Below the pieces are notes generated by a model. That model had not been told where the DNA came from. It did not search any database and worked only from the letters and a program-made list of their open reading frames with translations. Below are positions 3,129 to 50,129 of a DNA stretch of 64,000 nucleotides, piece after piece. Each line of letters starts with the position of its first letter. The stretch's first letter is position 1. Origin of the DNA: Bacteroidales bacterium (GTDB lineage Bacteria > Bacteroidota > Bacteroidia > Bacteroidales > UBA12077). The translations under genes and the position numbers were made by a program. The stretch covers positions 13,828-77,827 of the forward strand of contig JBFXEQ010000012.1 of NCBI GenBank assembly GCA_050179935.1. The letters run 5' to 3'.

Positions 3129-3149
3129 ATATAATTTAAAGGAGAATAA

Positions 3150-3623
<474 letters not shown>

Positions 3624-4854: not shown

Positions 4855-4884
4855 TTATTTTCAATTCACTTTAATATTTACATT

Positions 4885-5142: not shown

Positions 5143-5205
5143 GGATAAACTTTACGGCTTTGCGGTTGGCGAGCTGTAAAGTTTTTAAAATTTAATTTCA
5201 GCACT

Positions 5206-5700: not shown

Positions 5701-5715
5701 TCTGAAAAGCAGGGT

Positions 5716-6288: not shown

Positions 6289-6290
6289 TT

Positions 6291-7871: not shown

Positions 7872-7882
7872 TTGCTATCAGA

Positions 7883-13028: not shown

Positions 13029-13055
13029 AGCTTTTATAATTTACTTTTACGATTC

Positions 13056-15362: not shown

Positions 15363-15436
15363 ATCTTTTTGTTTTTTTCATTTTCTTATTACTTCAAAAA
15401 TCTGTTATGAAACAAATTAATCCAAAATCTTGCTAA

Positions 15437-17731: not shown

Positions 17732-17896
17732 AGCCGAAATCTTAGTTTAAGGGTCATCATTATGAAACATAGAAAAAGAACAGATACCCCATTTTAATTA
17801 AAAAAACTATTTCCTCTGTTTCCTTTATAAAAACCTCTAAACTTACATTTTTTTGTGAAAAAATCAAACTATTAACCCGCAATTGTTTTATAGAGA

Positions 17897-18616: not shown

Positions 18617-21468
18617 TCAGCGACTTTATTTTCAAATACTTCTGATATTTTTTTTAATAATAATCTAATTTCGATGGGTTTAATAAGATAATCATCATAA
18701 CCGAGATTGATTATTTCCTGGCGGTCGCTTTCCATGGCAAATGCGGTTTGTGCAATCACCGGTGTTTTAATGCCTTTGCTTTTAATTAATTTAAGAGCTT
18801 CATTACCATTAAGTACCGGCATTTGTATGTCCATTAAGATTAGATCATAATCGTTATTTTGTTCCAATAAGTCAATTGCCTCCTTACCATCTTTTGCCCA
18901 GTTTACAGTAACATTTGTTTTCTCAAGAACAGCTTCAAGAAATCTGAAGTTTGTTTCGGCATCTTCGGCAATAAGAATTTTTTTATTTTGCCAATTGCTG
19001 AACTGCAAATCCGACTGGTTATGCTCTTCATTCTTTATCTGATTTATTGGATGGTCTTGTGAAATTGAAAAATAAAACGTTGTTCCTATTCCGGTTTCTG
19101 ATTCGAACCACAATTTGCCACCCAGATTCTCGACAAGTTTTTTCGAAATAGATAAACCTAATCCTGTTCCTCCATATTTTCTGGTATCGGTTTCATCAGC
19201 CTGCCTGAAAGGCTTTACCACAGAATCCATTTTTTCCTTAGGAATACCAATACCGGTATCCTTAACATAACAAATAATGTTGGAATCCTGAGTATAATAT
19301 CCAAATTCGATTTTTCCTTTTTCGGTAAACTTCAATGCATTATCGAGCAAATGAGTAAAAATTTGTTTAAACCTTTTTGGATCGGTATTTACTATAAAAT
19401 CTTTATCTGGAACACCTTTTTTGGCAATAAAACGAAGACCTTTTATCTCTTTTGATTTTTTTAACGCTTCAAAACCAACCAACAAGTCGTCTATAATGGT
19501 GTTTATGTTGGTGTTAATTTTATTTATTGAAAGCTGCTCTGCCTCAAGTTTTGAAACATCAATTATATCATCGATAATGATTAACAGATTATTTGCACTT
19601 TTTTCAATAATATTAAGGTACTCATTTTTATCATTTTCTGATAAATTTGGATTTTTTACAAGTGTTGAAAATCCTATAATTGCATTCATTGGTGTTCTTA
19701 TTTCGTGTGACATGTTTGTCAGAAATGCGGTTTTTAATCTATCCGATTCTTCGGCTTTTAGTTTTGCTTCGTTAAGGTTTTGTTCTATAAGTTTTTGGTT
19801 GGTGATATCATGGTAAATTATGTAGGTTCCTAATTTACCCGTAGTATTCATTATTGGGGTAGCTAAGATAGAAACAAATATTTTTCTTCCGTCTTTGCAA
19901 ACCCTCATTGTTTCTAAAGAAACATTAGATCCTTTTTCGGTTCTTAATGCATTTTCTTTTGCTTCGGCTTTAAGTTCTTCCGGAACAATAAAATCATCAA
20001 CGTCCTTATGATGTATCTCTGATTTTGTAAAACCAAACAACCGTGTAAACTCTTTATTTACCCGAATAACATGATTGTTGTTTCCGACTAAAACTATTGC
20101 TTCGGGGGCACTTTCAAACAGACCTTCGAAATATAATTCTTCTTCCATTTTTAGCAACTGCGTTTTTTTCATTTCTCGGATCATGCCATTGGCTGAGCTG
20201 GCTAGAGATTTAAACTCAGAAAAATAAACCCTATTTTCATCAATTAAAATGAAATCGTGAGAAGCTTTTTTAAAAAAACGTAGAAACGAGTCTATGCTAC
20301 TTGTTGCTTTTTTTGAAATGTAAATCGAAAAAACAGTAAATGCAGAAAAAATAATTATCAAAACAATTAGTATAATTATAATATCGGTTTTGATTGATTT
20401 ATAAAGCAATTGCTTATGTTCCGACAGAGTGGTTTCAATCTCATCGGTATAAACACCAGCTCCAACCATCCATTGCCATTCGGGAATACCTTTTACGAAC
20501 GAAATTTTATTTGCAATAACAGAGGAGGTAAGTTTTCGCCACGAATAATAAATAAAATCCCCTTCGGGATTTTTTGCAGCATTTCTTTCCTCCTGAATTA
20601 CTTTTACCCCATTCGGATCTTCGAGCTCCCAAAGATTCCTATTATCTAAGATAAGATTTCCATCTGTAATTAATGCATCACCATCGTAAGTATTTATAAA
20701 AATGTATCCTTCTTTTTCAAACCTGATTTTTGAAACCCTATCTAGCACATTTCTTTGAACGTCTTTTGTAAAATCATAAATATACTCACCGGTACCAATA
20801 TACCAATTGAAAGGGGCAAATAGCTTTACGAAAGAGATTTTTTGATATGTATTGTCTGATAAACCTGGTTTTTTCCAATAACCATAGCAAAACCCTTCAT
20901 CATAAGTTTTCACAGTTAATATCTCATCGCGAATTACATAATTTCCCATATCATCTTGCAGGCTGATAAGGTTTTTTCCCTCATAATCTGTTTTAATGGG
21001 GAAAAGATATTCTATACCACTTAACGATCCAATAAAGTAATAACCCCGTTCGTTGTTAAACCGAATTGGTCTCAATGCATCTATTATAATTTTTTGAATT
21101 TCGCTTACTGACTTCTTGTTTATATTTTCGGAATAAATATTTTGTGCCATACTTATGGCTTCATTTGTGCGGTTACGTAATAAATCTTTTAGATTTTGTT
21201 CAGTATGTATTCGGTTGTAATTAATAAAGTCGATAGCATTTAATGTTTCTTTTTTTACTGATTGTTTTTTCTTTTCAATAAAATCTTGCTGAAGTTTAAC
21301 ACTTTCCTTTTTAAATGCAGTAAACTTTTGATAAATAGAAAAATATCCCAATAAAAGAAATAAAACAACAATTACAATATACGTTTCGACCACCAGTAAA
21401 TTAACCAGTTTACGATTTTTCCCTGACAGAGATGAAAAATACTTTAAAAACGAATTACTAATTTTCAT
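18613..21468 (-). CDS. Hybrid sensor histidine kinase / response regulator with periplasmic double-Cache domain and PAS
   Basis: 951 aa. The periplasmic region between two TMs has Cache motifs (ERGYYFIGS..., EGYIFINTYDGDAL...). It continues with PAS, HisKA (FLTNMSHEIRTPMNAI), HATPase (GGTGLGLSISKKLV) and REC (LILMDIQMPVLNG). Confidence 0.92.
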   Translation of the reverse strand: MKISNSFLKYFSSLSGKNRKLVNLLVVETYIVIVVLFLLLGYFSIYQKFTAFKKESVKLQQDFIEKKKQSVKKETLNAIDFINYNRIHTEQNLKDLLRNRTNEAISMAQNIYSENINKKSVSEIQKIIIDALRPIRFNNERGYYFIGSLSGIEYLFPIKTDYEGKNLISLQDDMGNYVIRDEILTVKTYDEGFCYGYWKKPGLSDNTYQKISFVKLFAPFNWYIGTGEYIYDFTKDVQRNVLDRVSKIRFEKEGYIFINTYDGDALITDGNLILDNRNLWELEDPNGVKVIQEERNAAKNPEGDFIYYSWRKLTSSVIANKISFVKGIPEWQWMVGAGVYTDEIETTLSEHKQLLYKSIKTDIIIILIVLIIIFSAFTVFSIYISKKATSSIDSFLRFFKKASHDFILIDENRVYFSEFKSLASSANGMIREMKKTQLLKMEEELYFEGLFESAPEAIVLVGNNNHVIRVNKEFTRLFGFTKSEIHHKDVDDFIVPEELKAEAKENALRTEKGSNVSLETMRVCKDGRKIFVSILATPIMNTTGKLGTYIIYHDITNQKLIEQNLNEAKLKAEESDRLKTAFLTNMSHEIRTPMNAIIGFSTLVKNPNLSENDKNEYLNIIEKSANNLLIIIDDIIDVSKLEAEQLSINKINTNINTIIDDLLVGFEALKKSKEIKGLRFIAKKGVPDKDFIVNTDPKRFKQIFTHLLDNALKFTEKGKIEFGYYTQDSNIICYVKDTGIGIPKEKMDSVVKPFRQADETDTRKYGGTGLGLSISKKLVENLGGKLWFESETGIGTTFYFSISQDHPINQIKNEEHNQSDLQFSNWQNKKILIAEDAETNFRFLEAVLEKTNVTVNWAKDGKEAIDLLEQNNDYDLILMDIQMPVLNGNEALKLIKSKGIKTPVIAQTAFAMESDRQEIINLGYDDYLIKPIEIRLLLKKISEVFENKVAE

Positions 21469-21649
21469 TCTTATTAATGTAAAAGACCAATTATAGGAAT
21501 ATTATTTTCCAAAAAAAAGTAATTTATTAATTAATACTCTTAATTATAACAAAATGGTTTTCTTAAATTTGACGTGTGATTTAAAATAATCTATTATTGT
21601 GTAAAATTATAAAATTGAAAGAACAAAGTAAATTTCTAATTCGATAATC

Positions 21650-26571: not shown

Positions 26572-27546
26572 TTACCAATTCAATAACCATGCAAAAATAA
26601 GGGGAGCAACAATCGTTGCATCCGACTCAACAATAAACTTAGGCGTATTGATATCAAGCTTTCCCCAGGTAATTTTTTCGTTAGGGACTGCTCCCGAGTA
26701 GGATCCATAACTGGTTGTGGAATCTGAAATCTGGCAAAAATAACTCCAGAAAGGAATATTATGCATTTCCATATCTTGGTATAGCATTGGTACAACGCAA
26801 ATTGGAAAATCTCCTGATATTCCTCCTCCAATCTGGAAAAATCCAACACCCTTACCTCCGGAGTTTTTAATATACCAATCAGCCAGATAAGTCATGTACT
26901 CAATACCCGATTTCATGGTTGATGGTTTAAGATCTCCTTTTATACAATAGGATGCAAAAATATTACCCATAGTGCTGTCTTCCCAACCTGGAACAATAAT
27001 TGGTAGGTTTTTTTCTGCAGCAGCTATCATCCAGGAGTTTTTTCGGTCAATTTCGTAGTATTGTTCTAACACACCCGAAAGAATCATTTTGTACATGTAT
27101 TCATGTGGAAAATATCTTTCACCCTTATCATTTGCTTCTTTCCACAATTTGTAAATATGTTTCTGCAATCTGCGAAAAGCTTCTTCTTCTGGAATACATG
27201 TATCGGTTACTCTGTTTAGTCCTTTTTCGAGTAAATCCCACTCATCTTGAGGTGTTAGATCTCGGTAATGCGGAACTCTTTTATAATGCGAATGAGCGAC
27301 AAGATTCATTAAATCTTCTTCGAGGTTTGCACCTGTACATGAAATAATCTGAACCTTGTCCTGACGAATCATTTCTGCAAGGCTCTTTCCTAATTCAGCA
27401 GTACTCATCGCTCCAGCAAGTGTAATCATCATTTTTCCACCTTCAGCAAGATGTTTTTCATACCCTTTGGCGGCATCTTTTAAGGCGGCAGAATTAAAAT
27501 GTAAATAATGATCTTCGATAAACTGTGATATTGTATTTCTTTTCAT
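26572..27546 (-). CDS. Deoxyhypusine synthase-like protein (DHS family; possible homospermidine-synthase-type aminobutyl transferase)
   Basis: 324 aa. MITLAGAMSTAELGKSLAEMIRQDKVQIISCTGANLEEDL and the GG-rich NAD region match the DHS family. It is the last gene of a three-gene polyamine operon. Confidence 0.8.
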   Translation of the reverse strand: MKRNTISQFIEDHYLHFNSAALKDAAKGYEKHLAEGGKMMITLAGAMSTAELGKSLAEMIRQDKVQIISCTGANLEEDLMNLVAHSHYKRVPHYRDLTPQDEWDLLEKGLNRVTDTCIPEEEAFRRLQKHIYKLWKEANDKGERYFPHEYMYKMILSGVLEQYYEIDRKNSWMIAAAEKNLPIIVPGWEDSTMGNIFASYCIKGDLKPSTMKSGIEYMTYLADWYIKNSGGKGVGFFQIGGGISGDFPICVVPMLYQDMEMHNIPFWSYFCQISDSTTSYGSYSGAVPNEKITWGKLDINTPKFIVESDATIVAPLIFAWLLNW

Positions 27547-27554
27547 CTTTAATA

Positions 27555-28412
27555 TTATTTTAATGAATTCGATTTGTTAAAAATATAACTAAGAATTTTA
27601 TAATAAAGTTTAGCTGCCAGAAAATCGGGAGCTTTGTTCGATTTATTCGGGCAGAGTTCCATAATATCAAAACCAATAACATTTTTATTTTGCACCACCA
27701 ATTTAATAAAATCGACAACCTGAAACCAGTTCAATCCTCCAGGCTCAGGTGTTCCGGTCGAAGGCATAATAGATGAATCAAGAACATCCAGGTCAATAGT
27801 AATAAATACGGTGTCGGTAATTTTTGATAATGCATCCTTCATCCAGTCCTTATTAGCATGAATCTGATGTGAGAAAAAGCAGTTTTCTTTTTTCATGTAT
27901 TGCTTTTCTTCAACATCCATGCTTCGAATACCAATCTGAACCAGGTTTGTGGTATGCTGAGCTTCGTGTACAGCACATGCATGGTTACAGGCAGATTCTT
28001 CGTATTCTTTACGTAAATCAGCATGTGCATCAAATTGAAGAACAGTGATATTTTTAAATTTCTCTTTGAAAGCCCTGATAGAACCTATACTTATTGAATG
28101 CTCACCTCCAAAAAGGGTTACAAACTTCCCCTTGTTTAAATATTCTAATGTGGTTTTATGGACTGCATCAACCATCAATTCAGGAGTTCTGTTTTCGGTT
28201 ATGGGTTTAGCTAAAAAGACACCATTCTTATAAACTTCTGAATCTGTTTCAATATCGTACAACTCCATATTTGCCGACGCATCAAGAAAAGCTTCAGGGC
28301 CTTTGTCAGATCCTTTTACCCAAGTGCTGGTACCATCGTATGGCACAGGTATTAGAACAATTTTTGCTGTTTCGAGGATAGAGTATTCCTTTGGTATTCC
28401 TGCGTATGTCAT
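27555..28412 (-). CDS. speB: Agmatinase / ureohydrolase family protein
   Basis: 285 aa. Mn-binding motifs GGEHS, FDAHADL and ITIDLDVLD are present. It starts 19 nt downstream of the decarboxylase stop. Confidence 0.85.
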   Translation of the reverse strand: MTYAGIPKEYSILETAKIVLIPVPYDGTSTWVKGSDKGPEAFLDASANMELYDIETDSEVYKNGVFLAKPITENRTPELMVDAVHKTTLEYLNKGKFVTLFGGEHSISIGSIRAFKEKFKNITVLQFDAHADLRKEYEESACNHACAVHEAQHTTNLVQIGIRSMDVEEKQYMKKENCFFSHQIHANKDWMKDALSKITDTVFITIDLDVLDSSIMPSTGTPEPGGLNWFQVVDFIKLVVQNKNVIGFDIMELCPNKSNKAPDFLAAKLYYKILSYIFNKSNSLK

Positions 28413-28430
28413 TAAATAATAAACTAATAA

Positions 28431-29822
28431 TTAATAACCTAAAATCTGAAGCATATCTAAAGGAGTTTGTTCGTCAGAGAACAGCTCGTAGGTAAACTTC
28501 CCTTTTTTATCTTTGTCTATAATAATTTGTTTTGGAAAAGGAATCAGACAATGCTGAATACCTCCAAAACCAGCAAGAGAATCCTGATAAGCTCCAGTAT
28601 TAAAAAATCCAATATAGAGTGTTTCGCCTGAAGAAACTTTTGGAAGATAAATGGCGTTGCTGTGTTGCTCGGAGTTATAGTAATCATCACTGTCGCATGT
28701 TAGTCCACCTAAAAAAACACGCTCATAAGTATTGTTCCACTTGTTTACCGCTAACATAATAAATCGTTTATTTATTGCCCAACTATCGGGTAAAGTGGTC
28801 ATAAAGGAGCTGTCTATCATGTTCCAAACCTCACGATCATTTTGTTTTTTCTGACCAAGCACAGAATATATTAAACCGCCACTCTCGCCTACAGTAAATG
28901 ACCCAAATTCAGTAAAAATATTGGGTTCTTTTAAGTTATTGGCTTCGCAAAATAATTTTATCTGCGAAACGATTTCTTGTACCATGTACTCATAATCGTA
29001 CTCGAACGAAAGGTTGTTTTTTATTGGAAATCCTCCACCGATATTCAAAGAATCGAGCTCAGGACAAACCTTTTTAAGTTCACCATAAACATTCATACAT
29101 TTTCCAAGCTCACTCCAGTAATATGAATTATCCTTTATACCTGTATTAATGAAGAAATGGAGCATTTTAAGCTTGATGTTTGGATTTTCGCGGATTTTCT
29201 TTTTATAAAAAGGTACAATGTCTTTGTATCCAATACCAAGGCGCGAGGTATAAAACTCAAACTTAGGTTCCTCCTCAGAAGCAATCCGTATTCCTACCTG
29301 AAAAGGAACTTCGACTTTTTCTTCAAATTGATTTATTTCGTAAATATTGTCAATTACAGGTATCGTGTTTTTAAATCCATTATTTATTAATCGGGCAATA
29401 TTATCTATATAAGCTTCGCGTTTATAACCGTTACAAATAATGTACGTTGATTTATCGATTTTTTTATCCTCAAAAAGTTTTTCAACAATATTGATATCAA
29501 AAGCCGAAGACGTTTCGATATGAATATCATTTTTTAATGCTTCGTTCAAAACATGTTTAAAATGAGAGCTTTTTGTACAATAGCAATAAAAATAATCGCT
29601 TTTGTAATCGACTTTTTCCATGGCTGTAGCAAACCATTTTTTAGCTCTTTTTATTTGATTTGAGATCTGTGGTAAATAGGTAAATTTAAGTGGAGTTCCA
29701 TATTTTTCAATAATATCCATTAATGGAATCTTGTGGAAAAGGAGATTGTCATCATCCAACTCAAACTCTTTCTGAGGAAAGTCAAAAGTTTGTTCGATAA
29801 GATCTGCGTATTTAATTTTCAT
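28431..29822 (-). CDS. PLP-dependent (fold III, Orn/DAP/Arg decarboxylase family) arginine decarboxylase-like enzyme
   Basis: 463 aa. Contains a PLP-lysine context (YCYCTKSS), GGGFPI and the substrate motif GGLTCDSDD. Operon context with agmatinase suggests arginine as substrate. Confidence 0.7.
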   Translation of the reverse strand: MKIKYADLIEQTFDFPQKEFELDDDNLLFHKIPLMDIIEKYGTPLKFTYLPQISNQIKRAKKWFATAMEKVDYKSDYFYCYCTKSSHFKHVLNEALKNDIHIETSSAFDINIVEKLFEDKKIDKSTYIICNGYKREAYIDNIARLINNGFKNTIPVIDNIYEINQFEEKVEVPFQVGIRIASEEEPKFEFYTSRLGIGYKDIVPFYKKKIRENPNIKLKMLHFFINTGIKDNSYYWSELGKCMNVYGELKKVCPELDSLNIGGGFPIKNNLSFEYDYEYMVQEIVSQIKLFCEANNLKEPNIFTEFGSFTVGESGGLIYSVLGQKKQNDREVWNMIDSSFMTTLPDSWAINKRFIMLAVNKWNNTYERVFLGGLTCDSDDYYNSEQHSNAIYLPKVSSGETLYIGFFNTGAYQDSLAGFGGIQHCLIPFPKQIIIDKDKKGKFTYELFSDEQTPLDMLQILGY

Positions 29823-31227: not shown

Positions 31228-34200
31228 TTAGTTTTGAGAAAAAGCCTGACTTATAGCATGAAGCAGGCTCTCTATTGTTATAGGCTTTGAAATGTAGTTG
31301 TCAAATCCAGCATCGCTACATTGCTTTTCTTCGTTATTATGAACATAAGCCGTTTGCCCTATAATTTTAAGGTTTTTATTGTGCTGTTTTATTATTCGTG
31401 CAGCTTCAAATCCATCCATTACAGGCATTTTAATATCCATCAAAACTAAGTCAATTTGGTCGTTTTGCATACACATTTCAACCGCCTGTTTTCCATCTTT
31501 TGCCCAAATAATTTTAGCTTTTGTAGGAATTAGTGCTTCTTCTATGAAAGTATAATTAATTGGCAGATCTTCGGCAACAAGTACAACTTTGTTTTGCCAG
31601 TTAAAATCAAAATCCTGAGTTTCGTCATCGTTGCTCTTTTCGAACTTGTGTTCGGCAGGTTCTAGTGGAAGTGTAAAGTAGATTGTTGTTCCCTGGTTTG
31701 GAGTTGACTGTGCCCATATTTCTCCGCCAAGATGCTGAATAATTTTTTTAGCTATCGTTAGTCCAATTCCCATGCCTCCATATTCGCGGGTAAATGATTC
31801 ATCGGCCTGTCGGAATAAATCGTAAATATGTTCAAATTTTTCGTGAGCAATTCCAATTCCTGAATCAATTACATAAAACTGAATCGTGTTTTTTTCGATA
31901 ATTGAATAACCAAACTCAACAAATCCTTTTGATGTAAATTTAACTGCATTTTCGATTAGGTTATTCAAAACTTGTCTAAGTCTTCTAACATCTGTCGAAA
32001 TGGTAAATCCTTTTCTTCTAACGCCTTTGTTAACTGACAATCTTATTTCTTTGTTTTCGTCTGCTTCAATTTTATTGTTAAATTCGGTATAAAGCTCTGT
32101 AATTAATTTGTTTACCTGACAATCGGATTTTTTTATTTCGAAACTTCCTGATTGTATTTTCGAAATATCGATTACATCATCAATTATTTTGAGGAGACTA
32201 AAGCCGTTTTCATTAATTAAGTTATTGAGTTTTACACGTTCCTCGAATGCCAGGTCTTCGTCTAATAAAAGATTTGAAAAGCCAATAATAGCATTCATTG
32301 GGGTTCTGATTTCGTGCGAAAGGTTCGATAAAAAGGCAGATTTAAGTCGATCGGCCTCTTCTGCTTTTTCTTTGGCCAGTATTAATTCTTTTTCGTTATG
32401 CTTGCGTTTAGTAATATCCTCAGAAATAAAAACAAAATGGGTAATTTCTCCTTTTTCGTTTTTAACCGGCGAAATAGATGCAAGCTCCCAATATTTTTCT
32501 CCGTTTTTCTTAATATTCTGAAACTCTCCCTGCCAATCTACTCCGGTTATAACGATATCCATTATATCTTGGTAAATGCTTTTTGATAATTCTTCGGATC
32601 TTAAAATACTTATTTCCTTGCCAATTACATCGTTGGTAGAATATCCTGTAATTTGTGTAAAGCTTTGATTAACAATCTCTATTTTGCCTTTTAAATTGGT
32701 AATAATAACGCATGTGGGCGAATGTTGAATAGCATTGGAAAGAATTTTAAGCTGTAGTTCGGTTTTCTTTTTATTAGTAATATCAACCATAACTCCACCA
32801 ATCTGCCATTGGTTATCAGCGTTTCTAAAACGAAACTTATGGGTTAAAAACGAATTTAGATTTCCTGAAAAATCGGGTAACTCTTCTTCTAAGGCTAAAA
32901 TTTCACCAGCAACAACTTTATGATCTTCTTTAATTATTCGGTTAGCATATTTCTCCGAAAATAATTCTTTAGGGAGCTTGCCAATGCTTTTATCAGATAA
33001 TACAGATCTTTTTACATATTTGTTTATGTAAAGCATTTTTCCGTTATCGTCTTTAATAAAAACACCAACAGGAATATTGTCCATAAACAAGGAGAACTGT
33101 TGTTCTGTTCTTTTTAAAGCTTCTTCAATCTCTAACCTTTTTGAAATATCTTTAAAATCTTCAATTATTCCTAAAACCTCACCTGTACTAGCTTTAAAAG
33201 CTACAGAAGTAATAATACCTGGGATTATTAAGCCAGAAGTGTTTTTTTTCTGAATATCCTGTTCAACTCTTTCTTCTCCGTTCATAATTCTTACAAGCGG
33301 ACATTCGGCTGTATGGCAAAATGGACCAGGGAAAACTTCATAACACTTTCTGCCTTCTGCATTTTCTTTACTTATACCCGACATCATGGTAAAGGTTCGA
33401 TTTACACGAAGTATGTTGAAGTTGGTATCAATTAACCTCATGCTATTGCCTGTAGTATTGAAAATTTGATTAAGCTCAGCGTTTGTTTTTATTATTTCTT
33501 TCGATTTTTCTTCCAGTCGCTTATCCAGGTTATCTTGCAGGTTAAACAACTTATGCAGTATAATATTAAACGAAAAATGCAGAATTAATGAAACAGCAAT
33601 TAAAATAAGGATAATTATTAGTAGCGATCTGTAAATAGTAACCTGAAACTGATTTTCGAGCTGGGTAATATCTTTGGCAAATACAATACCAACAAATCCT
33701 TCGGAATGGAATTGGTTTTGAACCTGAACCAAATTAGAAAAATAATATTTATCGTTAAACTTAAACCTTTCTTTTGTAAGCTTATTGTTCTGTATTGATA
33801 TTTTTGATAAAACAGGGCTGTTATAAAGTGTGTGAATTATTAAATCTTTATTTGAGTTTTGATTGGTTGAGTTTTCAAGAAAAAGAGGGGATACAATTTT
33901 TTTATCAAACACAGAAGCTATCTGAACATTAAATTTTTTAGCAATGCTTTCAGCCACTTCGTTTTCACGTAATCCAAACTCAATACAACCAAGGTATTTG
34001 CCATCATAAAACAAGGGTTCAACTATTTTATAATATAATTGAGAATTTAAATATTCAAATCCAGAAGCAGGTTTACTTGTTGCATTAACCTTTGCAACAA
34101 ATGAGCTTGGTGGAGCTGTTTCAACAGAAGCATTTGGACCAATATCCAGAAGTAGAACAGAGAGGTTATCGGGGCCATAAAAATTGATAATAAAATGGAA

Positions 34201-34515
34201 CGGATTTTCAGATTTTAGGACAGAATAGAGAGGTAGTGCTTTTCTGTAAAGTTCGTCAACGTTAATAGTCGCAAATTCTTTCCTTATTTCAGGATTATTA
34301 ACAAAAAATTTTATTTTTTCGCGATATAACGAATTTGTATTATAAAGGAGGTTTTTAATTTCAAGGCATACAATTTCATTATCCTTCTGTATTTGCCAAT
34401 CGCGATATTGTCTTTGATTTTGTATTCCTAGGTAAAAGTACACTGAGCACAAAATAAGCAAAACAGTAACTACAGCAAGAATGGTTTTAGTCTTTAATTT
34501 TTTCTCGAATTCCAT
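31228..34515 (-). CDS. Hybrid sensor histidine kinase / response regulator with periplasmic domain and multiple PAS domains
   Basis: 1095 aa. Two TMs bracket a ~270-aa domain. There are at least three PAS domains, then HisKA (FLSNLSHEIRTPMNAI), HATPase (GGMGIGLTIAKKII) and REC (LVLMDIKMPVMDG). Confidence 0.92.
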   Translation of the reverse strand: MEFEKKLKTKTILAVVTVLLILCSVYFYLGIQNQRQYRDWQIQKDNEIVCLEIKNLLYNTNSLYREKIKFFVNNPEIRKEFATINVDELYRKALPLYSVLKSENPFHFIINFYGPDNLSVLLLDIGPNASVETAPPSSFVAKVNATSKPASGFEYLNSQLYYKIVEPLFYDGKYLGCIEFGLRENEVAESIAKKFNVQIASVFDKKIVSPLFLENSTNQNSNKDLIIHTLYNSPVLSKISIQNNKLTKERFKFNDKYYFSNLVQVQNQFHSEGFVGIVFAKDITQLENQFQVTIYRSLLIIILILIAVSLILHFSFNIILHKLFNLQDNLDKRLEEKSKEIIKTNAELNQIFNTTGNSMRLIDTNFNILRVNRTFTMMSGISKENAEGRKCYEVFPGPFCHTAECPLVRIMNGEERVEQDIQKKNTSGLIIPGIITSVAFKASTGEVLGIIEDFKDISKRLEIEEALKRTEQQFSLFMDNIPVGVFIKDDNGKMLYINKYVKRSVLSDKSIGKLPKELFSEKYANRIIKEDHKVVAGEILALEEELPDFSGNLNSFLTHKFRFRNADNQWQIGGVMVDITNKKKTELQLKILSNAIQHSPTCVIITNLKGKIEIVNQSFTQITGYSTNDVIGKEISILRSEELSKSIYQDIMDIVITGVDWQGEFQNIKKNGEKYWELASISPVKNEKGEITHFVFISEDITKRKHNEKELILAKEKAEEADRLKSAFLSNLSHEIRTPMNAIIGFSNLLLDEDLAFEERVKLNNLINENGFSLLKIIDDVIDISKIQSGSFEIKKSDCQVNKLITELYTEFNNKIEADENKEIRLSVNKGVRRKGFTISTDVRRLRQVLNNLIENAVKFTSKGFVEFGYSIIEKNTIQFYVIDSGIGIAHEKFEHIYDLFRQADESFTREYGGMGIGLTIAKKIIQHLGGEIWAQSTPNQGTTIYFTLPLEPAEHKFEKSNDDETQDFDFNWQNKVVLVAEDLPINYTFIEEALIPTKAKIIWAKDGKQAVEMCMQNDQIDLVLMDIKMPVMDGFEAARIIKQHNKNLKIIGQTAYVHNNEEKQCSDAGFDNYISKPITIESLLHAISQAFSQN

Positions 34516-39685: not shown

Positions 39686-39906
39686 GGTCGGTTAGTTTTA
39701 AATTTTTAAGATTGATAAATTACAAAAAAATTGGGGTGAAGGGAAATAATAATTAAAGAATTTTATTGCGGGAGGCCTGTATGTTAGTTAAAATAAAGTA
39801 AATAACCAATCTTTATAGGCATAACAGGCTGATTTTCTATTTGATAAGTATTTATACCTATTCTTTTTTACGATTTTTAACTGTTTACTTAGACGAGTAT
39901 TCAATC

Positions 39907-39914
39907 TACTTTTG
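39907..39914 (+). promoter_or_regulatory. Candidate -7 box (TAnnTTTG) for the hdr-like operon
   Basis: TACTTTTG lies 36 nt upstream of the ATG at 39950. Confidence 0.35.
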
Positions 39915-39949: not shown

Positions 39950-40663
39950 ATGGAAAAACTCTACGATCTTCTTTTGCAGGATATTCGTTTTGAAGAAGGA
40001 TTAAATGCCTGTATGAATTGTGGTGTTTGTACAGCAATTTGCCCTGCTGCAGAGTTTTATAAATATGATCCGCGCGAAATAGTTGATACTGTTCAAACCA
40101 AAGATGAAACCAAAATCGAAGCTTTGTTAAAGGGAGAAACCATTTGGTACTGTGGCCAATGCATGTCTTGTAAAACAAGATGTCCGCGTGGTAATACTCC
40201 TGCAATGGTTATTATGGCTTTACGAACATTATCGCAAAAACTTGGATATTTTACCGATTCGGAAAAAGGTCGTCAGCAATTTGCCATAAAGAGAACTGTT
40301 GGCGAAAATATACTCAAGTATGGTTACTGCGTACCAACGTATGCTGTTACGCCCGAAATGCATCCTGAGCAAGGTCCCATTTGGAATTATATAAGCGAAA
40401 ATATTGAAGAAGTTATGGAACGTTTAGGTGCAAACCTAAGAAAACCAGGCCCTGGATCAATGCGAAAGATTCATCAATCCAACTTGGATGAACTTGATAA
40501 AATTTTCGAAGTTTCTGGTGGATATAATATGTTTAAAGATATTGAGCAGTACTCAGAGAAAAAAGCAAATGAGATGGGGTTGGAATTTAAAAAAGAGGGT
40601 ACCGATAATGAGTATTTCAGGCATGTATATACATTTAACAGTGGAAATCATAGTAAAGAATAA
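39950..40663 (+). CDS. HdrC-like 4Fe-4S dicluster protein
   Basis: 237 aa. Two cluster motifs are present, CMNCGVCTAICP and CGQCMSCKTRCPRG, with the spacing of heterodisulfide reductase subunit C. Confidence 0.75.
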   Translation: MEKLYDLLLQDIRFEEGLNACMNCGVCTAICPAAEFYKYDPREIVDTVQTKDETKIEALLKGETIWYCGQCMSCKTRCPRGNTPAMVIMALRTLSQKLGYFTDSEKGRQQFAIKRTVGENILKYGYCVPTYAVTPEMHPEQGPIWNYISENIEEVMERLGANLRKPGPGSMRKIHQSNLDELDKIFEVSGGYNMFKDIEQYSEKKANEMGLEFKKEGTDNEYFRHVYTFNSGNHSKE

Positions 40664-40665
40664 TT

Positions 40666-41727
40666 ATGGACGCAACAAATAATATTTGGAAAAATTACCA
40701 GAAAGAGATTGCAGAAGATCATTACTATTATGTTCGCAGTTGCATTCGTCAGAGCTTTTTTCCGGCTTCTGAGGAGTTTTTTCTTAAAATTCTGAAAGAT
40801 GAACTGGGTAAGGATATTTTTGATGATCCGAACCATACCACTTGCACAGGTATTGGCTATCATGCTGATGTGGTGCCTTTTGAAACTATAATGACTGTTG
40901 TGGCCAGACATTTTGCCCTGATGAAAGAATCCGGATACAAAAACATTATTATTTCCTGTGTTACATCCTTTGGTATTTATACTGAAATTATAGAAACATG
41001 GAAACATTTTCCCGAAGTACTTGAAAAAACCCGTGAAAATCTTTATAAAGCCACAAAAAGAGAGTTTGATATTCCGCTTAACATGGCTCATTCAAGTGAT
41101 ATTATCTACAAATTCAGACACGAGATTGCTGACAAATTAAAATATAGACTGGTTAATCAAATAACAGGTAAGCCGCTAAAAATTGTAGAACATATTGGAT
41201 GTCATTACTCTAAAATGTTCCCAAAATATGGAGTTGGTGGGGCTGAGTTTCCTCAAGTATTAGCTGGAATGATTAATGCGTGGGGCGGAAATGTTATCGA
41301 TTATCCCGAGCGTCGCCATTGTTGTGGTTTTGGTTTTCGACAATATTTGGTTCAGGCAAATCGAGGCTATTCTGCAGCAAACTCTAAAAAGAAATTTGAA
41401 TCGATGGAGCCCTATAAACCAGATATGATTTTATGTAATTGCCCGGGATGTACTATGTTTATGGATAAATGGCAGTACACTATTTCAGAGATGGTAGCCA
41501 AAACCTATGGCGAAAACAATCAGGGAATTCCTGTTCTTACTTATGAAGAGCTTGCAGGATTAGTTTTAGGTTATAATCCATGGGATCTGGGATTGCAGTT
41601 TCATCAAATTCAGTCGGAGCCGTTACTTCAAAAAATGGGAATTGATTATTCTTCAAAAGATAAGTATAAAACAAGATCAGGAATTCAGATGCCTATGCCT
41701 GAATGTCCTGCAAATATTAGTTACTAA
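40666..41727 (+). CDS. HdrB-like CCG-domain protein
   Basis: 353 aa. Cysteine-rich CCG-type motifs (RRHCCGFGF, CNCPGCTMF) are present. It starts 2 nt after the HdrC-like stop. Confidence 0.75.
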   Translation: MDATNNIWKNYQKEIAEDHYYYVRSCIRQSFFPASEEFFLKILKDELGKDIFDDPNHTTCTGIGYHADVVPFETIMTVVARHFALMKESGYKNIIISCVTSFGIYTEIIETWKHFPEVLEKTRENLYKATKREFDIPLNMAHSSDIIYKFRHEIADKLKYRLVNQITGKPLKIVEHIGCHYSKMFPKYGVGGAEFPQVLAGMINAWGGNVIDYPERRHCCGFGFRQYLVQANRGYSAANSKKKFESMEPYKPDMILCNCPGCTMFMDKWQYTISEMVAKTYGENNQGIPVLTYEELAGLVLGYNPWDLGLQFHQIQSEPLLQKMGIDYSSKDKYKTRSGIQMPMPECPANISY

Positions 41728-41729
41728 TT

Positions 41730-42782
41730 ATGAATAAAAAAGTAGTTGTTATCGGTGGTGGAATTACCGGAATGGAAGCTTCAGTGCAGCTTTCTGCATT
41801 AGGTTATTCGGTTACAATTTTAGAAAAAGAAAGCCAGCTTGGTGGTCATTTAAAAGACTGGACTGTACTTTTCCCCAATCTCCGAAAAGGTCATGAGATT
41901 GTATCGTTTCTTGAACACGGACTCGAATTACAGGAAGTAAATGTTATTTACAACTCAAAAATTTCTGAAATAAAAAGGGTTAATAAACATTATGAAATTG
42001 CTCTCGAAAGCAGAAAATCAATCATAGCTGATGCCATTCTGGTAGCTACAGGGTTTGATTTATTTGATGCTCATCGCAAAGAAGAATTTGGATACGGTAT
42101 TTACGAAAATGTAATTACATCATACGATTTGGAAAAGCTATTTGCTCAAAAAGGAGAAATTAAAACTCCCTCAGGAATAAAGCCAAAGCGTATTGGATTC
42201 ATTCATTGTGTTGGATCACGCGATGAGAAAGTAAATAACCACTACTGCTCGAATGTGTGTTGTGTTACTGGAGTAAAGCAGGCGATGGAACTTAAGACAC
42301 TTATTCCGGATGCTGAAATTTTCAATTTTTACATGGATATGCGCATGTTCGATACACATTTTGAAGAATTGTATCTCGAATCACAAAAAAAATACGGAAT
42401 CAACTTTGTCCGAGGTCGTTTATCAGAGGCTAATGAAACTATTGATAAACGAATCGTAATTAAAGTTGAAGATACATTAACCAGCCGACCACTGAAAATG
42501 ACTGTTGATATGATAGTGCTCCTGGTTGGAATGGAACCATCGAAAGGAACCAAAGAAATTGCAAATCTTTTAAATCTTAAACTACGCGAAAGCGGATTTT
42601 TAAAGCCCGAAGATGATCATACCATGTCGAATGTATCGAATATGGCGGGGGTATTTTTTGCAGGAACATGCAGTGGTCCAATGTCTATTAAATATACATT
42701 TACCGATGCACGCGCCGCAGTTACAAAAATTAATTGTTTTTTAAAAGAATACGAATTACAAAATCGAATATTAGTAAACTAA
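41730..42782 (+). CDS. HdrA-like FAD-dependent oxidoreductase (short form, no ferredoxin domains)
   Basis: 350 aa with a dinucleotide fold (VVVIGGGITGMEAS...LEKESQLGGH) and the HdrA-type cysteine segment HCVGSRD...HYCSNVCC. Confidence 0.75.
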   Translation: MNKKVVVIGGGITGMEASVQLSALGYSVTILEKESQLGGHLKDWTVLFPNLRKGHEIVSFLEHGLELQEVNVIYNSKISEIKRVNKHYEIALESRKSIIADAILVATGFDLFDAHRKEEFGYGIYENVITSYDLEKLFAQKGEIKTPSGIKPKRIGFIHCVGSRDEKVNNHYCSNVCCVTGVKQAMELKTLIPDAEIFNFYMDMRMFDTHFEELYLESQKKYGINFVRGRLSEANETIDKRIVIKVEDTLTSRPLKMTVDMIVLLVGMEPSKGTKEIANLLNLKLRESGFLKPEDDHTMSNVSNMAGVFFAGTCSGPMSIKYTFTDARAAVTKINCFLKEYELQNRILVN

Positions 42783-42786
42783 ATAC

Positions 42787-43131
42787 ATGTCAAAATTTGG
42801 ATTTACAATAAATAAGCCCCGGGTAATTGATTACGATCTCGCCGATAAGCGCGTATTGAACTATGTACTTGCAAATGAACCCAGCTTTAATTTATGCATC
42901 TTTTGTGGTTCTTGCACATCAACCTGTTCGGCATGTAATTTTACGGATTTTAATATCCGGAAACTGAAAATGTTTATTCGTCGTGGTTTAGTTGAAGATA
43001 TTGGAGTCGAAGCGGAGAAATGCATGCTTTGTGGCAAATGTTTTCTGGTTTGTCCACGAGGAGTAAATAACCGCAATATTGTTTTAAAAGTACGCGAAGC
43101 ATTAACTAAAATCGAAAGCCATGAATTATAG
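42787..43131 (+). CDS. Small 2x[4Fe-4S]-type ferredoxin
   Basis: 114 aa with CIFCGSCTSTCSAC and CMLCGKCFLVCPRG. Confidence 0.7.
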   Translation: MSKFGFTINKPRVIDYDLADKRVLNYVLANEPSFNLCIFCGSCTSTCSACNFTDFNIRKLKMFIRRGLVEDIGVEAEKCMLCGKCFLVCPRGVNNRNIVLKVREALTKIESHEL

Positions 43132-44950
43132 TCATTTCGTTTTGCCATTTACTATTGGCTTAATAGCATTACTAGCATACATGCTGGTTCGGTTTGGTAT
43201 TTGGATCTATAAACTTGATAAAGAAGATAAGCAGCATATACGTAAAAATATTTTTTCGATAAAATCGCTGCAAGCAGTTAAAGAGATTTTTACAGAAAGT
43301 TTATTGCATCGCAATATTTTCAAAACCAATAAAGTACTTGGCTATATGCACATGAGCCTTGCTTTTGGCTGGTTATTATTAATTATTGGAGGCCATATTC
43401 AAACCTGGATTTATTACAATACGCTTTCAAATCCAGTTTATATACCAATATTTTTCGAATATTTTGTGCACAATAAAACAGGAATGCTGTTTGGTGAGGT
43501 ACTTACTTTTACAATGGATTTAATTCTGCTATTTATTCTTACCGGTGTTGCCCTAGCATATTTTAAGCGTTTTTATTCAAAAATGTTTGGGATGAAAAAA
43601 ACCACCTCGCTTAAATTAGGTGATAAATTTGCATTGGCATCATTATGGCTAATTTTCCCATTGCGTTTATTTGCCGAAAGCACAACTGCTTCGTTGCATG
43701 GTACAGGTGGTTTTTTAACACAAAATTTTGGTAACTGGATAGCCGGATTTATTCCTGCAACTGGCTTTGAACCTGTTTTTTGGTGGGCATATTCTATTTC
43801 TTTAGGAGTGTTCTTTTTATCACTTCCTTTTTCAAGATATATGCATATTCCTACAGAATTATTACTAATTACCTTGCGTAAATGGGGAGTAAAATCAAAA
43901 GAAACCTTCGATTCCTTTGCCGATGTTGAGTTACATTCTTGTTCGCGTTGTGGAATATGTATTGATCCCTGCCAGATGTCATCAACAGGAATTAGCAAAA
44001 AAACACCGGCCAGTTATTTTTTAAAATCAGTTCGTGACAAAGAAATTAACTCTTACGATGCCTTTAATTGTTTGATGTGTGGGAGGTGCGAAGATAAATG
44101 CCCGGTAGGTATTACAACCACAAATCAACGATTAGCGCAAAGAATAAATTTAGCCAATAAGAGGCAAGGTGATTTCTCTTATCTAAAGGAGATTAATCAT
44201 CAGGCAAAAACCGATGTGGTTTATTTTGCCGGATGTATGTCGCATCTTACTCCAGGTATAACGCGGTCAATGGTAAAAATCTTTTCAAAAGCGAAGGTTA
44301 ATTATTGGTTTATGGATGAAGATGGATCGGTTTGTTGTGGTCGTCCACAGAAGCTTGCCGGAAACTTAAAAGCCATGCAACAACTAATGGATTTTAATAA
44401 AAAACAAATTATAGACTCCGGTGCAAAAACACTTGTTACTTCTTGCCCTATTTGTTATAAAGTTTTTTCTGAGGATTATAAGCTGGGAATAGAAGTGTTG
44501 CATCATTCACAATATTTGAACAGGTTAGTTGAGCAGAAATTAATCCCTGTACAAGCAGACACTAAGAAAGTTGTTTATCACGATCCTTGTGAACTTGGAC
44601 GAGGTGCAGGAATTTACGATGAGCCGAGAAAACTATTAACCCATGTGGCAACACTTGTTTCAACAAAACACGAAAAACAGGATTCGTTGTGTTGTGGAGG
44701 CAGCCTTGGAAACCTCGAAATTGAAGCTACAAATCGTTCTTTAATTGCTAAAGATGTTGTTGACGAACTCACCAAACCAAATCCAGATATTATTGCAACG
44801 GCCTGCCCTTTATGCAAAAAAACATTTATTAAAGTTTCAAATGTTAAAGTTCTCGATATTGCTGAACTTATAGCTATATCTATACTGGAGAAGAACGAAA
44901 AATCTGACGAAAAGAAGAAAACTACTGTTTTGCAGGAAGAATTGGTTTAA
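43121..44950 (+). CDS. Fused membrane cytochrome-b-like (HdrE/DsrM/NarI-type) and HdrD/DsrK-like Fe-S CCG protein
   Basis: 609 aa. About 5 N-terminal TMs end in FSRYMHIP. Then come CSRCGICIDPC and CLMCGRCEDKCP, followed by two CCG domains (VCCGRP...SCPICYK and LCCGGSLG...ACPLCKK). It overlaps the previous gene by 11 nt. Confidence 0.75.
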   Translation: MNYSHFVLPFTIGLIALLAYMLVRFGIWIYKLDKEDKQHIRKNIFSIKSLQAVKEIFTESLLHRNIFKTNKVLGYMHMSLAFGWLLLIIGGHIQTWIYYNTLSNPVYIPIFFEYFVHNKTGMLFGEVLTFTMDLILLFILTGVALAYFKRFYSKMFGMKKTTSLKLGDKFALASLWLIFPLRLFAESTTASLHGTGGFLTQNFGNWIAGFIPATGFEPVFWWAYSISLGVFFLSLPFSRYMHIPTELLLITLRKWGVKSKETFDSFADVELHSCSRCGICIDPCQMSSTGISKKTPASYFLKSVRDKEINSYDAFNCLMCGRCEDKCPVGITTTNQRLAQRINLANKRQGDFSYLKEINHQAKTDVVYFAGCMSHLTPGITRSMVKIFSKAKVNYWFMDEDGSVCCGRPQKLAGNLKAMQQLMDFNKKQIIDSGAKTLVTSCPICYKVFSEDYKLGIEVLHHSQYLNRLVEQKLIPVQADTKKVVYHDPCELGRGAGIYDEPRKLLTHVATLVSTKHEKQDSLCCGGSLGNLEIEATNRSLIAKDVVDELTKPNPDIIATACPLCKKTFIKVSNVKVLDIAELIAISILEKNEKSDEKKKTTVLQEELV

Positions 44951-44970: not shown

Positions 44971-45003
44971 AAAAGACTGCTTTAAGAGAGCAGTCTTTTT
45001 TTA
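44971..45003 (+). terminator. Intrinsic terminator after the hdr-like operon
   Basis: AAAAGACTGCTTTAAGAGAGCAGTCTTTTTTT. Confidence 0.75.
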
Positions 45004-49659: not shown

Positions 49660-50013
49660 TTAAAAGGTTATCACCTTATCGCTTTCAAGGGTTAATTGTG
49701 TAAGTTCTTTCATGGTGCTTAACTGAGCTCCCTCAATCAATTGCAAATTATGTATCCCTCTGGCTTCGGCACATGAGGTACAAATTTTTATTGCGCCTTT
49801 TTTTTGAACAAATAGTTTGAGCATTCTCTCGATATTATAATAGCCATCGGGCGTTTTTTGGTTTGGCAGAGCACAGGTAACAGCATCTGCCATTAAGAAA
49901 ACTACAACTTCTGTCGTTTCAGAATCTTTTAAAATCTGATTTGCTAAGCGAAGTCCGTTAAATGCTTTTTCGGTTCCATAGGGAGCATCATTTATAATAA
50001 TTAAAGTTTTCAT
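49660..50013 (-). CDS. DsrE/DsrF-like family protein
   Basis: 117 aa from the ATG at 50013 (MKTLIIINDAPYGTEKAFNGLRLA...). It has a conserved Cys region, KICTSCAEARG. An alternative ATG lies at 50049. Confidence 0.7.
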   Translation of the reverse strand: MKTLIIINDAPYGTEKAFNGLRLANQILKDSETTEVVVFLMADAVTCALPNQKTPDGYYNIERMLKLFVQKKGAIKICTSCAEARGIHNLQLIEGAQLSTMKELTQLTLESDKVITF

Positions 50014-50129
50014 GTGACTGATTGATTGGTTATTAATTAAATTTATCATTACAAATGTGCAAAATTTATTACAGATAATTCGTTACTGATAAAACAAATT
50101 TGGTTAACTTGGAATTTTGTAATAAAAAG

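Follow-up and report, generated by a model that had tools for sequence, protein, structure and literature searches.

We analyzed a window of 64,000 nucleotides (nt) from a Bacteroidales bacterium (GenBank assembly GCA_050179935.1, contig JBFXEQ010000012.1, positions 13,828 to 77,827 of the forward strand), in which five co-directional genes related to heterodisulfide reductase (Hdr) occupy positions 39950-44950 of the plus strand. The first is an hdrC-like gene (39950-40663), which encodes a protein of 237 amino acids (aa) with two [4Fe-4S] motifs and a C-terminal arm. It is followed by an hdrB-like gene (40666-41727; 353 aa), whose product is of a type with eight cluster cysteines, and by a short hdrA-like gene (41730-42782; 350 aa), whose product has an FAD-binding core and one [4Fe-4S] cluster. 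The fourth gene (42787-43131; 114 aa) encodes a ferredoxin with two [4Fe-4S] motifs, and the fifth (43121-44950; 609 aa) a fusion protein of the HdrF/EMO/HdrDE type, with five transmembrane helices, a pair of cubane motifs and two complete CCG motifs. The first four genes are spaced 2, 2 and 4 nt apart and the last two overlap by 11 nt, and the coordinates of the open reading frames (ORFs) agree exactly with the tight coupling described in an initial annotation of this DNA.

The genes on either side lie on the opposite strand and encode a protein sorted by the type IX secretion system (upstream) and an M16 peptidase (downstream). A hairpin resembling an intrinsic terminator, with a 13-bp stem followed by a T-run, lies at 44971-44999, 21 nt past the last stop codon, and scores on either strand. 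Upstream, we read TACTTTTG at 39907-39914 of the plus strand as a candidate -7 box of the Bacteroidetes type (consensus TAnnTTTG). Given the opposite orientation of the flanking genes, the tight spacing, the one promoter-like box and the one terminator, the five genes are predicted to be a single transcription unit.

Three of the five proteins are what the initial annotation had taken them to be, as domain and Protein Data Bank (PDB) matches bear out. The HdrC-like protein is matched by Pfam Fer4_8 (E 6e-11) and by the HdrC chain 5ODC_C (E 3e-12), and its eight cysteines plus C127 are conserved in 66 homologs. The HdrA-like protein aligns from end to end with the crystal structure of the 349-aa sHdrA (6TJR; E 2e-54), whereas its alignments to methanogen HdrA leave out the ferredoxin domain that is inserted in the latter. 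Domain and structure-sequence comparisons found no N-terminal, inserted or C-terminal ferredoxin domain in its 350 aa; the conserved cysteines C160, C173, C177 and C178 fit one [4Fe-4S] cluster. Between residues 100 and 340, it is 49% identical to the Altiarchaeales protein described below, 41% to methanogen HdrA and 33% to sHdrA. The best PDB matches of the 114-aa ferredoxin are the N-terminal di-cluster halves of HdrC chains (5ODC_C, E 5e-6), and its eight cysteines are invariant in 62 homologs. Because it matches the N-terminal half of HdrC and lacks the C-terminal arm, we refer to it as mini-HdrC.

For the HdrB-like protein, the assigned identity stands but a canonical CCG site does not. 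Pfam finds only the C-terminal CCG domain, in which the motif is complete (C179, C219, C220, C259, C262). The N-terminal motif is degenerate and keeps three of the five cysteines (C26, T59-C60, C98...S101). The protein thus has eight cluster cysteines instead of the canonical ten, a state that is also found in sHdrB1 of sulfur-oxidizing Hdr-like (sHdr) systems and in the HdrB of Altiarchaeales. Classical HdrB and sHdrB2 retain all ten cysteines, and the degenerate N-terminal motif is a derived state that the window HdrB and sHdrB1 have in common.

The fusion protein had been described as a cytochrome-b-like domain joined to an HdrD/DsrK-like module. Its five transmembrane helices, predicted in an AlphaFold2 model, its two Fe-S motifs and its two CCG domains all hold; of the expected heme ligands, only the proximal histidine pair is present. 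The best PDB match is 9OJN, the EtfD/EMO of Mycobacterium smegmatis, both by sequence (E 2e-23) and by fold (Foldseek, E 6e-17). In all 76 homologs compared, the archaeal one included, H63, H77, H242, Y224 and all 18 cysteines are invariant, so that neither the CCG cysteines nor the proximal heme ligands are missing on alignment. The same 76 homologs have no further conserved histidine in the membrane part. In the EMO of Syntrophus aciditrophicus (SaEMO), the proximal heme bP is ligated by H87 and H251, and H233, 18 residues ahead of H251, belongs to the distal heme unit. By spacing and by alignment with an EMO-like paralog from a related genome (not by direct alignment with SaEMO), H77 and H242 of the fusion are equivalent to H87 and H251, and the equivalent of H233 is the invariant Tyr224. 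The paralog has a histidine at the distal position (WWGH...SKHFH), where the cassette fusion reads WWAY...SRYMH. The membrane domain thus probably binds a single proximal heme b, as does the M. smegmatis enzyme (bioRxiv 10.64898/2026.08.18.745454), and with a single proximal heme, quinone exchange would take place without charge separation.

A pattern scan of one genome per species for relatives of the fusion protein found at least 585 species-level genomes, and we fetched the best 80 loci. Nearly all of these 80 are labeled Bacteroidota (Bacteroidales, Prolixibacteraceae, Salinivirgaceae, Rikenellaceae, Odoribacter, Mariniphaga and Sunxiuqinia), with one named isolate, Gaoshiqia hydrogeniformans Z1-71. 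According to record titles, the fetched metagenome-assembled genomes (MAGs) come from rumen, gut, digester, aquifer and sediment. The order C-B-A-ferredoxin-fusion is kept in every one of the 80 loci that is long enough to judge. Median identities to the window proteins are 63% for HdrC, 69% for HdrB, 49% for HdrA, 51% for the ferredoxin and 50% for the fusion. A plasmid search returned only distant actinobacterial and Bacillota EtfD-like genes.

The cassette is not confined to Bacteroidota, and Altiarchaeales also carries it. An exhaustive search with HdrB against 1.84 billion representative sequences gave only 729 hits, of which the nearest outside Bacteroidota belong to Candidatus Altiarchaeales. 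The contig concerned (MCBE01000066 of WOR_SM1_SCG, a record labeled as a single-cell genome; our locus L083) encodes full-length orthologs of all five proteins, 41-47% identical to those of the window (mini-HdrC 44%). Between positions 4393 and 15685 its genes run C-B, then C-(NifX-like)-B-A-(65-aa ferredoxin)-ferredoxin-fusion, so that the order is kept with extra small genes interspersed. The hdrC-hdrB pair is duplicated in this locus, a NifX-like (Nitro_FeMo-Co) gene lies between hdrC and hdrB, and a gene for a classical 65-aa ferredoxin with two [4Fe-4S] clusters lies between hdrA and the gene for mini-HdrC. The cluster adjoins two genes of the nitrogenase component 1 type (NifD/K-like) on the opposite strand. 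Together with the conserved gene order in the Bacteroidota loci, the domain content bears out the earlier proposal that a soluble HdrCBA-type module is joined here to a membrane HdrED-type fusion. With the order recurring in Bacteroidota and Altiarchaeales alike, the five genes are a genuine unit and did not come together by chance.

A few loci depart from this plan. In a variant (L085, 1-4875), the membrane domain is N-terminal to HdrC in one chain (411 aa, cut by the contig end), followed by genes for an HdrB of 371 aa, a short HdrA-like protein of 357 aa and a Pyr_redox_2 protein of 401 aa. This locus lacks a separate fusion protein, and the proteins of its source organism are rich in arginine and alanine. 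Two rumen Salinivirgaceae MAGs (L062 and L071) have a gene for an unrelated InlB-repeat protein between hdrA and the ferredoxin gene. In a single case (L038, 7992-8555), a gene for a 187-aa cupin of the cysteine dioxygenase type (PF05995, E 2e-10) lies between hdrB and hdrA, which is a weak hint of a thiol substrate.

Little else recurs around the cassette. Clustering of the flanking ORFs turned up nothing beyond the cassette itself in more than 12 of the 80 loci, and the small recurrent neighbors are uninformative (DUF3795, DUF3788, a Cys-rich 137-aa protein and a lipoprotein). The sole recurrent functional neighbor, in about 12 of the 80 (L005-L007, L012, L013, L022, L023, L032, L033, L036, L037 and L064), is a NarL-type two-component system directly upstream on the same strand, of which the window itself has no ortholog. 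Its kinase (about 315 aa) has a HisKA_3 domain and an N-terminal hydrophobic region resembling three transmembrane segments, with no evident extracytoplasmic domain, and its response regulator has a GerE-type helix-turn-helix. etfAB genes were found near the cassette in one of the 80 loci, on the opposite strand and with acyl-CoA dehydrogenase genes.

The initial annotation had remarked that the usual partners of Hdr modules are missing, and this is so both in the window and across the related loci (86 sequences, the window plus 85 loci, about 1.46 Mb). Hydrogenase or MvhD, formate dehydrogenase (FDH) and Qmo, Apr or Dsr partners were not found in them, and tblastn searches of the same sequences found no sHdrH, LbpA, TusA, DsrE3 or SoxT. 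The one exception to the annotated absence is a DsrE-family gene in the window whose linkage to the cassette is not conserved. It lies at 49660-50049 on the minus strand, 4.7 kb downstream of the cassette, and is the first of a minus-strand run with M3-like and M16 peptidase genes. Its 129-aa product belongs to the DsrE/DsrF family (PF02635, E 1e-23) and scores 44 bits with the TusD model, which is under the cut-off. Synteny with the cassette is seen only in a near-identical relative (L003).

The tight coupling of the genes, their shared terminator, the invariant order in Bacteroidota and the order kept in Altiarchaeales make it quite probable that the five proteins form one quinone-linked complex. 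The operon is self-contained: no external redox partner recurs beside it, and nothing else at all is found in more than 12 of the 80 loci. An alternative is that HdrCBA on the one hand and the fusion, with mini-HdrC, on the other are two independent enzymes sharing an operon, and elsewhere HdrF/EMO-type proteins do partner with ETF or GlpAB. This seems highly improbable here, given that the order of the five genes does not vary even among genomes whose proteins share only 42-76% identity and extends across two domains of life, that the spacing is so tight (2-4 nt gaps and the 11-nt overlap), and that neither HdrCBA nor the fusion has a recognizable electron partner of its own in the neighborhood.

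For a single five-protein complex, we tentatively favor a role as a membrane-bound enzyme that would oxidize a thiol or sulfane-sulfur substrate and hand the electrons to menaquinone. We infer the carrier order, the kind of substrate, the direction of flow and the number of hemes given below from motifs, gene order and analogy. By analogy with the predicted sHdr complex AA'C1B1C2B2, a dimer of the short HdrA would bear two arms. One arm would consist of HdrC and the eight-cysteine HdrB, which we take as the catalytic site and which, as would be expected of such a site, varies least among the subunits (69% median identity), and the other of mini-HdrC and the 609-aa fusion. A cytoplasmic thiol or sulfane-sulfur substrate would be oxidized at the modified pair of non-cubane clusters in HdrB, and the electrons would pass via the cubanes of HdrC to the FAD and [4Fe-4S] cluster of HdrA. 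From there mini-HdrC would relay them to the fusion, with its non-cubane and cubane clusters, mirroring the way in which ETF-FAD feeds EMO, where the non-cubane clusters accept electrons and are non-catalytic (bioRxiv 10.64898/2026.08.18.745454). Menaquinone would take them up from the single proximal heme b, on the cytoplasmic side and with no charge moved across the membrane.

The variant L085, which fuses a membrane domain to HdrC, suggests that the CBA module is tied to the membrane. HdrF/EMO proteins are quinone-linked acceptors for soluble flavoproteins (bioRxiv 10.64898/2026.08.18.745454, PMC2702500), and in type II sHdr systems electrons are proposed to reach menaquinone via EtfAB and EMO (PMC11094781). 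We suspect a quinone sink on that precedent, since here an EMO/HdrF-type protein is encoded in the operon itself. The link to the menaquinone pool raised by the initial annotation is plausible as an interpretation.

The closest parallels are with sHdr systems. We used as a reference a type I shdr locus (L086, fetched via the 6TJR sequence), in which the order is DsrE-C1-B1-A-H-C2-B2-LbpA, with TusA and SoxT nearby. The cassette proteins are 30% (C1), 26% (B1) and 29% (A) identical to the sHdr counterparts, with 33% in the HdrA core. Like types I and II, the cassette has the order hdrC1-hdrB1-hdrA and a short HdrA of about 340-350 aa with FAD and one [4Fe-4S] cluster. Its HdrB resembles sHdrB1 in the state of the N-terminal CCG motif, C-(S/T)C-C..S, but the C-terminal motif has five cysteines and that of sHdrB1 four. 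In a neighbor-joining tree of HdrB, the Bacteroidota, Altiarchaeales and L085 proteins form a clade with 91 of 100 bootstraps, beside a clade that contains sHdrB1, although this wider grouping is not supported. A relative in the neighboring HdrB clade (L089) has the plan C1-B1-short A-C2-B2, and this plan and that of the type I locus therefore point to a common blueprint, a short HdrA with two C/B arms. In the cassette, the predicted second arm is mini-HdrC together with the membrane-fused C/B module.

The type I system (shdrC1B1AHC2B2 with lbpA, as in Hyphomicrobium denitrificans and L086) likewise has two arms, a modified cluster site in C1B1, and a second arm composed of a ferredoxin and a ten-cysteine CCG module. 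The cassette differs in having a membrane domain with five helices and heme b fused to its second arm, and its HdrB has 353 aa where sHdrB1 has 466. With the type II system (shdrC1B1AHB3-etfAB-emo) it shares a membrane Fe-S/CCG cytochrome b protein of the EMO/HdrF type encoded in the cluster, but it lacks sHdrB3 and EtfAB, and mini-HdrC would lead to the membrane protein instead. Unlike both types, it has no sHdrH gene after hdrA and no linked LbpA or sulfurtransferases of the TusA or DsrE type.

By published definitions, the cassette is not an sHdr system. Such a system has sHdrH and either C2B2 (type I) or B3 with etfAB and emo (type II) in one syntenic cluster, and genes for LbpA and sulfurtransferases are reported alongside shdr in every case (PMC11094781). 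We rejected a canonical sHdr assignment on these grounds, along with the absence of sHdrH, LbpA, TusA, DsrE3 and SoxT from the 1.46 Mb. The enzyme could still be a genuine member of an sHdr-LbpA pathway that converts sulfane sulfur to sulfite, with the lipoate-binding protein and sulfurtransferases encoded elsewhere in the genome. The shared C1-B1-short A order and the eight-cysteine HdrB1-type motif would suit this, as would the DsrE-family gene 4.7 kb downstream in the window, and a study of Black Sea isolates read the hdr genes of Bacteroidota in this way without tests (PMC11129491). We nevertheless consider it very unlikely, because the definition and the constant company of lbpA and sulfurtransferase genes do not apply at the cassette, sHdrH, LbpA, TusA and DsrE3 are absent from the 86 sequences, the DsrE-family gene is syntenic only in L003, and subunit identity is only 26-33%. 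The text of the sHdr survey in PMC11094781 does not mention Bacteroidota, which also argues against such a pathway. The hosts of the cassette, anaerobic Bacteroidales and Altiarchaeales, are to our knowledge not recognized as sulfur oxidizers.

The architecture of the fusion protein is already known as HdrF/EMO/EtfD. The name HdrF was given to this build in the Desulfobacterium autotrophicum genome paper, where the genes cluster with glpAB or etfAB (PMC2702500), and the single-chain, three-domain build is reported for EMO and modeled for HdrDE (bioRxiv 10.64898/2026.08.18.745454). Like these proteins, the fusion is one chain in which five NarI-type transmembrane helices are combined with a di-cubane domain resembling HdrC and with a domain for non-cubane clusters, and the proximal heme ligand pair of EMO is conserved. 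It differs in that it keeps all ten non-cubane cysteines, as in catalytic Hdr, whereas the distal non-cubane cluster is non-canonical in both characterized EMOs (S. aciditrophicus and M. smegmatis); in that an invariant Tyr replaces the distal heme His; in that it is about 100 residues shorter than SaEMO (706 aa); and in that the cassette has no linkage to etfAB, glpAB or acyl-CoA dehydrogenase genes.

A separate 727-aa EMO-like paralog is encoded in L001 (807-2990), with a degenerate first CCG motif and with the distal heme His, and it is 23% identical to the cassette fusion of the same genome. Downstream of the cassette in L001, on the opposite strand (11977-21605), is a cluster of etfAB, acyl-CoA dehydrogenase, thiolase, 3HCDH and ECH genes, with 23S-rRNA-IVP genes interspersed. 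We rejected an assignment as EMO proper on the basis of the missing etfAB linkage, the full ten-cysteine set, the missing distal His and the presence of this separate paralog.

The comparison with EMO raises the possibility that no thiol chemistry is involved and that the non-cubane clusters are mere relays, in which case the complex would act as an oxidoreductase of menaquinone and a redox protein, be it ferredoxin, flavodoxin or another flavoprotein. The non-cubane clusters of EMO are after all non-catalytic and fed by ETF-FAD, the distal-type motif of HdrB is degenerate like the distal cluster of EMOs, and no thiol-carrier gene is linked to the operon. However, some nine Fe-S clusters, a flavin and two non-cubane modules appear to far exceed what ferredoxin:quinone transfer needs. 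Moreover, the best-conserved subunit is HdrB, the complete ten-cysteine set of the fusion is typical of catalytic Hdr and not seen in EMOs, and in L001 the cassette stands beside an EMO-like paralog and hence does not duplicate it. We find a pure relay rather doubtful.

With the methanogenic enzymes HdrABC and HdrDE, the cassette proteins share their folds and the motifs for cofactors. There is 41% identity in the core of HdrA, and the fusion corresponds to HdrE plus HdrD, with the two cubane motifs and ten-cysteine CCG domains of HdrD. The two parts are fused here, and only the proximal His pair is kept, compared with a separate di-heme HdrE in HdrDE, the substrates of which are methanophenazine and CoM-S-S-CoB. 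Unlike methanogenic HdrABC, the cassette HdrA lacks three extra domains, HdrB has eight and not ten cysteines, no MvhD, hydrogenase or FDH is found at the cassette, and the hosts are not methanogens. Scores with the NCBIfam equivalogs of methanogenic Hdr fall far short (HdrA 209-263 bits against cut-offs of 1100-1400, HdrB 137 against 450, HdrC 95 against 350). Methanogenic HdrABC was rejected for these scores, the short HdrA, the eight-cysteine HdrB and the lack of partners.

Other families were rejected in the same way. In QmoABC, the quinone-interacting membrane-bound oxidoreductase of sulfate reducers, HdrA-like flavoproteins are joined to a subunit with an HdrC-like ferredoxin part and an HdrE-like cytochrome b part. 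The cassette would likewise tie an HdrA-like flavoprotein to a membrane HdrE-like cytochrome b subunit, but it has one HdrA where Qmo has QmoA and QmoB, it contains CCG modules that Qmo lacks, the domain order of the membrane subunit differs, and no apr or sat genes are nearby. The score with the qmoC model is 44 bits, for a cut-off of 300, and there is no apr context. DsrMK(JOP) was set aside on a DsrK score of 60 bits against a cut-off of 400 and because no dsr genes occur in the window or the loci. Scores were equally low for Lut, Glp and Glc enzymes (GlpC 70 against 278, GlcF 36 against 333, LdhH 82 against 800 and LutB 18 against 445), and GlpA/B, GlcD/E and LutA/C genes are not adjacent to the cassette in the window or the loci. 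No subunit attains the curated cut-off of any NCBIfam family, which speaks against placing one of them in a characterized complex such as Lut or the GlpC type.

Given its HdrA, the complex may bifurcate electrons. As a flavin-based bifurcating or confurcating enzyme, it would couple, at the FAD of HdrA, a mid-potential thiol/disulfide pair at HdrB, the high-potential menaquinone pool at the fusion and a low-potential ferredoxin at mini-HdrC. In one direction, thiol oxidation would yield reduced ferredoxin; in the reverse, menaquinol and reduced ferredoxin would reduce a disulfide. Two separate electron arms leave the flavoprotein, there is a precedent in Qmo for HdrA-like flavoproteins on an HdrE-like quinol-interacting subunit, and the extra classical 65-aa ferredoxin gene in the Altiarchaeales cluster would suit ferredoxin as a substrate, which favors the idea slightly. 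The window core (residues 100-340) is also 41% identical to the methanogenic HdrA, the bifurcating subunit of HdrABC (PMC6019823).

Several features nonetheless speak against bifurcation. The short HdrA lacks the ferredoxin domains that make the low-potential exit in bifurcating HdrA, the 11-nt overlap of the mini-HdrC and fusion genes suggests that mini-HdrC belongs to the quinone arm and is not a third exit, and the Bacteroidota cassettes have no soluble ferredoxin gene. We regard bifurcation or confurcation in either direction as unlikely. In the specific form of a quinone-dependent bifurcating Hdr, in which the FAD of the short HdrA splits the electrons of a thiol donor, one to menaquinone and the other to a low-potential ferredoxin, we think it quite unlikely. 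Such an enzyme, if real, would be an unrecognized ferredoxin-reducing (or, in reverse, ferredoxin-using) route for fermentative Bacteroidales and autotrophic Altiarchaeales, across two domains of life.

Returning to the thiol-to-menaquinone complex that we favor, several considerations weigh against it. The proteins share only 26-33% identity with sHdr subunits, HdrA lies slightly nearer to methanogen HdrA (41%) than to sHdrA (33%), and the wider grouping of the cassette HdrB with sHdrB1 lacks solid bootstrap support. The AlphaFold2 model of the fusion is of moderate quality only (pLDDT 72, and less than 50 in the ferredoxin domain). No gene for a substrate carrier or for sulfur transfer is conserved in the vicinity of the cassette. 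The ten-cysteine set of the fusion is that of catalytic HdrB and HdrD, so the fusion may have disulfide chemistry of its own and not be a pure relay. CCG domains also occur in enzymes without a thiol substrate, such as EMO, GlpC, GlcF and LutA (bioRxiv 10.64898/2026.08.18.745454). The direction of electron flow is not readable from sequence, and possession of a quinone by Altiarchaeales is not a given.

Expression of the cassette would be under a dedicated regulator acting at a fixed palindromic operator. In the window, the operator-like palindrome ATAAGTATTTATACCTAT lies at 39844-39861 on the plus strand, some 100 nt ahead of the hdrC start codon, and has the core GTAT-TT-ATAC (39848-39857). 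It is the sole match in the 64 kb, where shuffled sequence gives an expectation of 0.45. Of 65 upstream regions, 27 hold a single copy of the strict core GTATWWATAC, in each case 84-113 nt ahead of the start codon, an enrichment of about 50-fold relative to the rest of the 1.3 Mb. With a weight matrix of the palindrome, 29 of 64 upstream regions exceed the 99th percentile of controls, and most other (weaker) loci have a related palindrome, ATAnGy-N6-rCnTAT, at the same position. The strict motif is present in eight of the 12 loci with an adjacent two-component system. In those genomes the response regulator is likely to be the protein that binds the palindrome, and the adjacent NarL-type system would probably be the dedicated regulator. 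TAnnTTTG, which we take to be the Bacteroidetes -7 promoter element, was counted 20-120 nt upstream of hdrC in 45 of 64 loci, as a raw count without a chance expectation. An Rfam scan of the leader gave no family match.

Every part of the cassette is of a known kind. For the combination, its conservation across domains, the Tyr at the distal position and the operator, we found no earlier description. A literature search for the cassette in Bacteroidota returned one passing mention, in which Black Sea isolates are said to have "a complete heterodisulfide reductase system" with a guess at sulfide detoxification (PMC11129491), and no experimental study. PMC6085437, a preprint on HdrA evolution and a paper on the Sporomusa HdrCBA concern other systems. 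The cassette is common, yet annotation of the proteins goes no further than "(Fe-S)-binding protein" or "heterodisulfide reductase subunit".

From the perspective of energy metabolism, the cassette bridges two active lines of work, sulfur oxidation by sHdr, for which the electron acceptor is debated, and the HdrF/EMO/EtfD quinone modules, for which structures appeared in 2025-2026. It presents an Hdr-type catalytic module that is hard-wired to a quinone module, with no ETF between them. If the thiol-to-menaquinone reading is correct, this would be a third architecture of sHdr-like enzymes, and would point to an unrecognized route by which thiols or sulfur compounds feed (or draw on) the menaquinone pool in anaerobic Bacteroidales. 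For tracing the inducing signal and the regulon, the conserved operator offers a direct handle.

Elsewhere in the window, two rotary ATPase sets adjoin: the end of a V-type operon at 745-3623 (subunits D, I and K) and, immediately after it, genes for an F-type ATP synthase at 3757-8761 (subunits a, c, b, delta, alpha and gamma). A gene of the 23S rRNA intervening-sequence protein family (PF05635) lies at 304-738, and the same family is scattered among metabolic genes in L001. Three tandem paralogs of 764-769 aa, 49-56% identical to one another, are encoded on the minus strand at 10719-17731; the one that was scanned has dCache, HAMP, GAF and PAS domains and no recognizable output domain. Hybrid sensor kinases are encoded near this trio, at 18613-21468 and 31228-34515. 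A polyamine set on the minus strand (26572-29822) comprises genes for a protein like deoxyhypusine synthase, for an agmatinase and for a decarboxylase akin to arginine decarboxylase, the last scoring under the speA cut-off.

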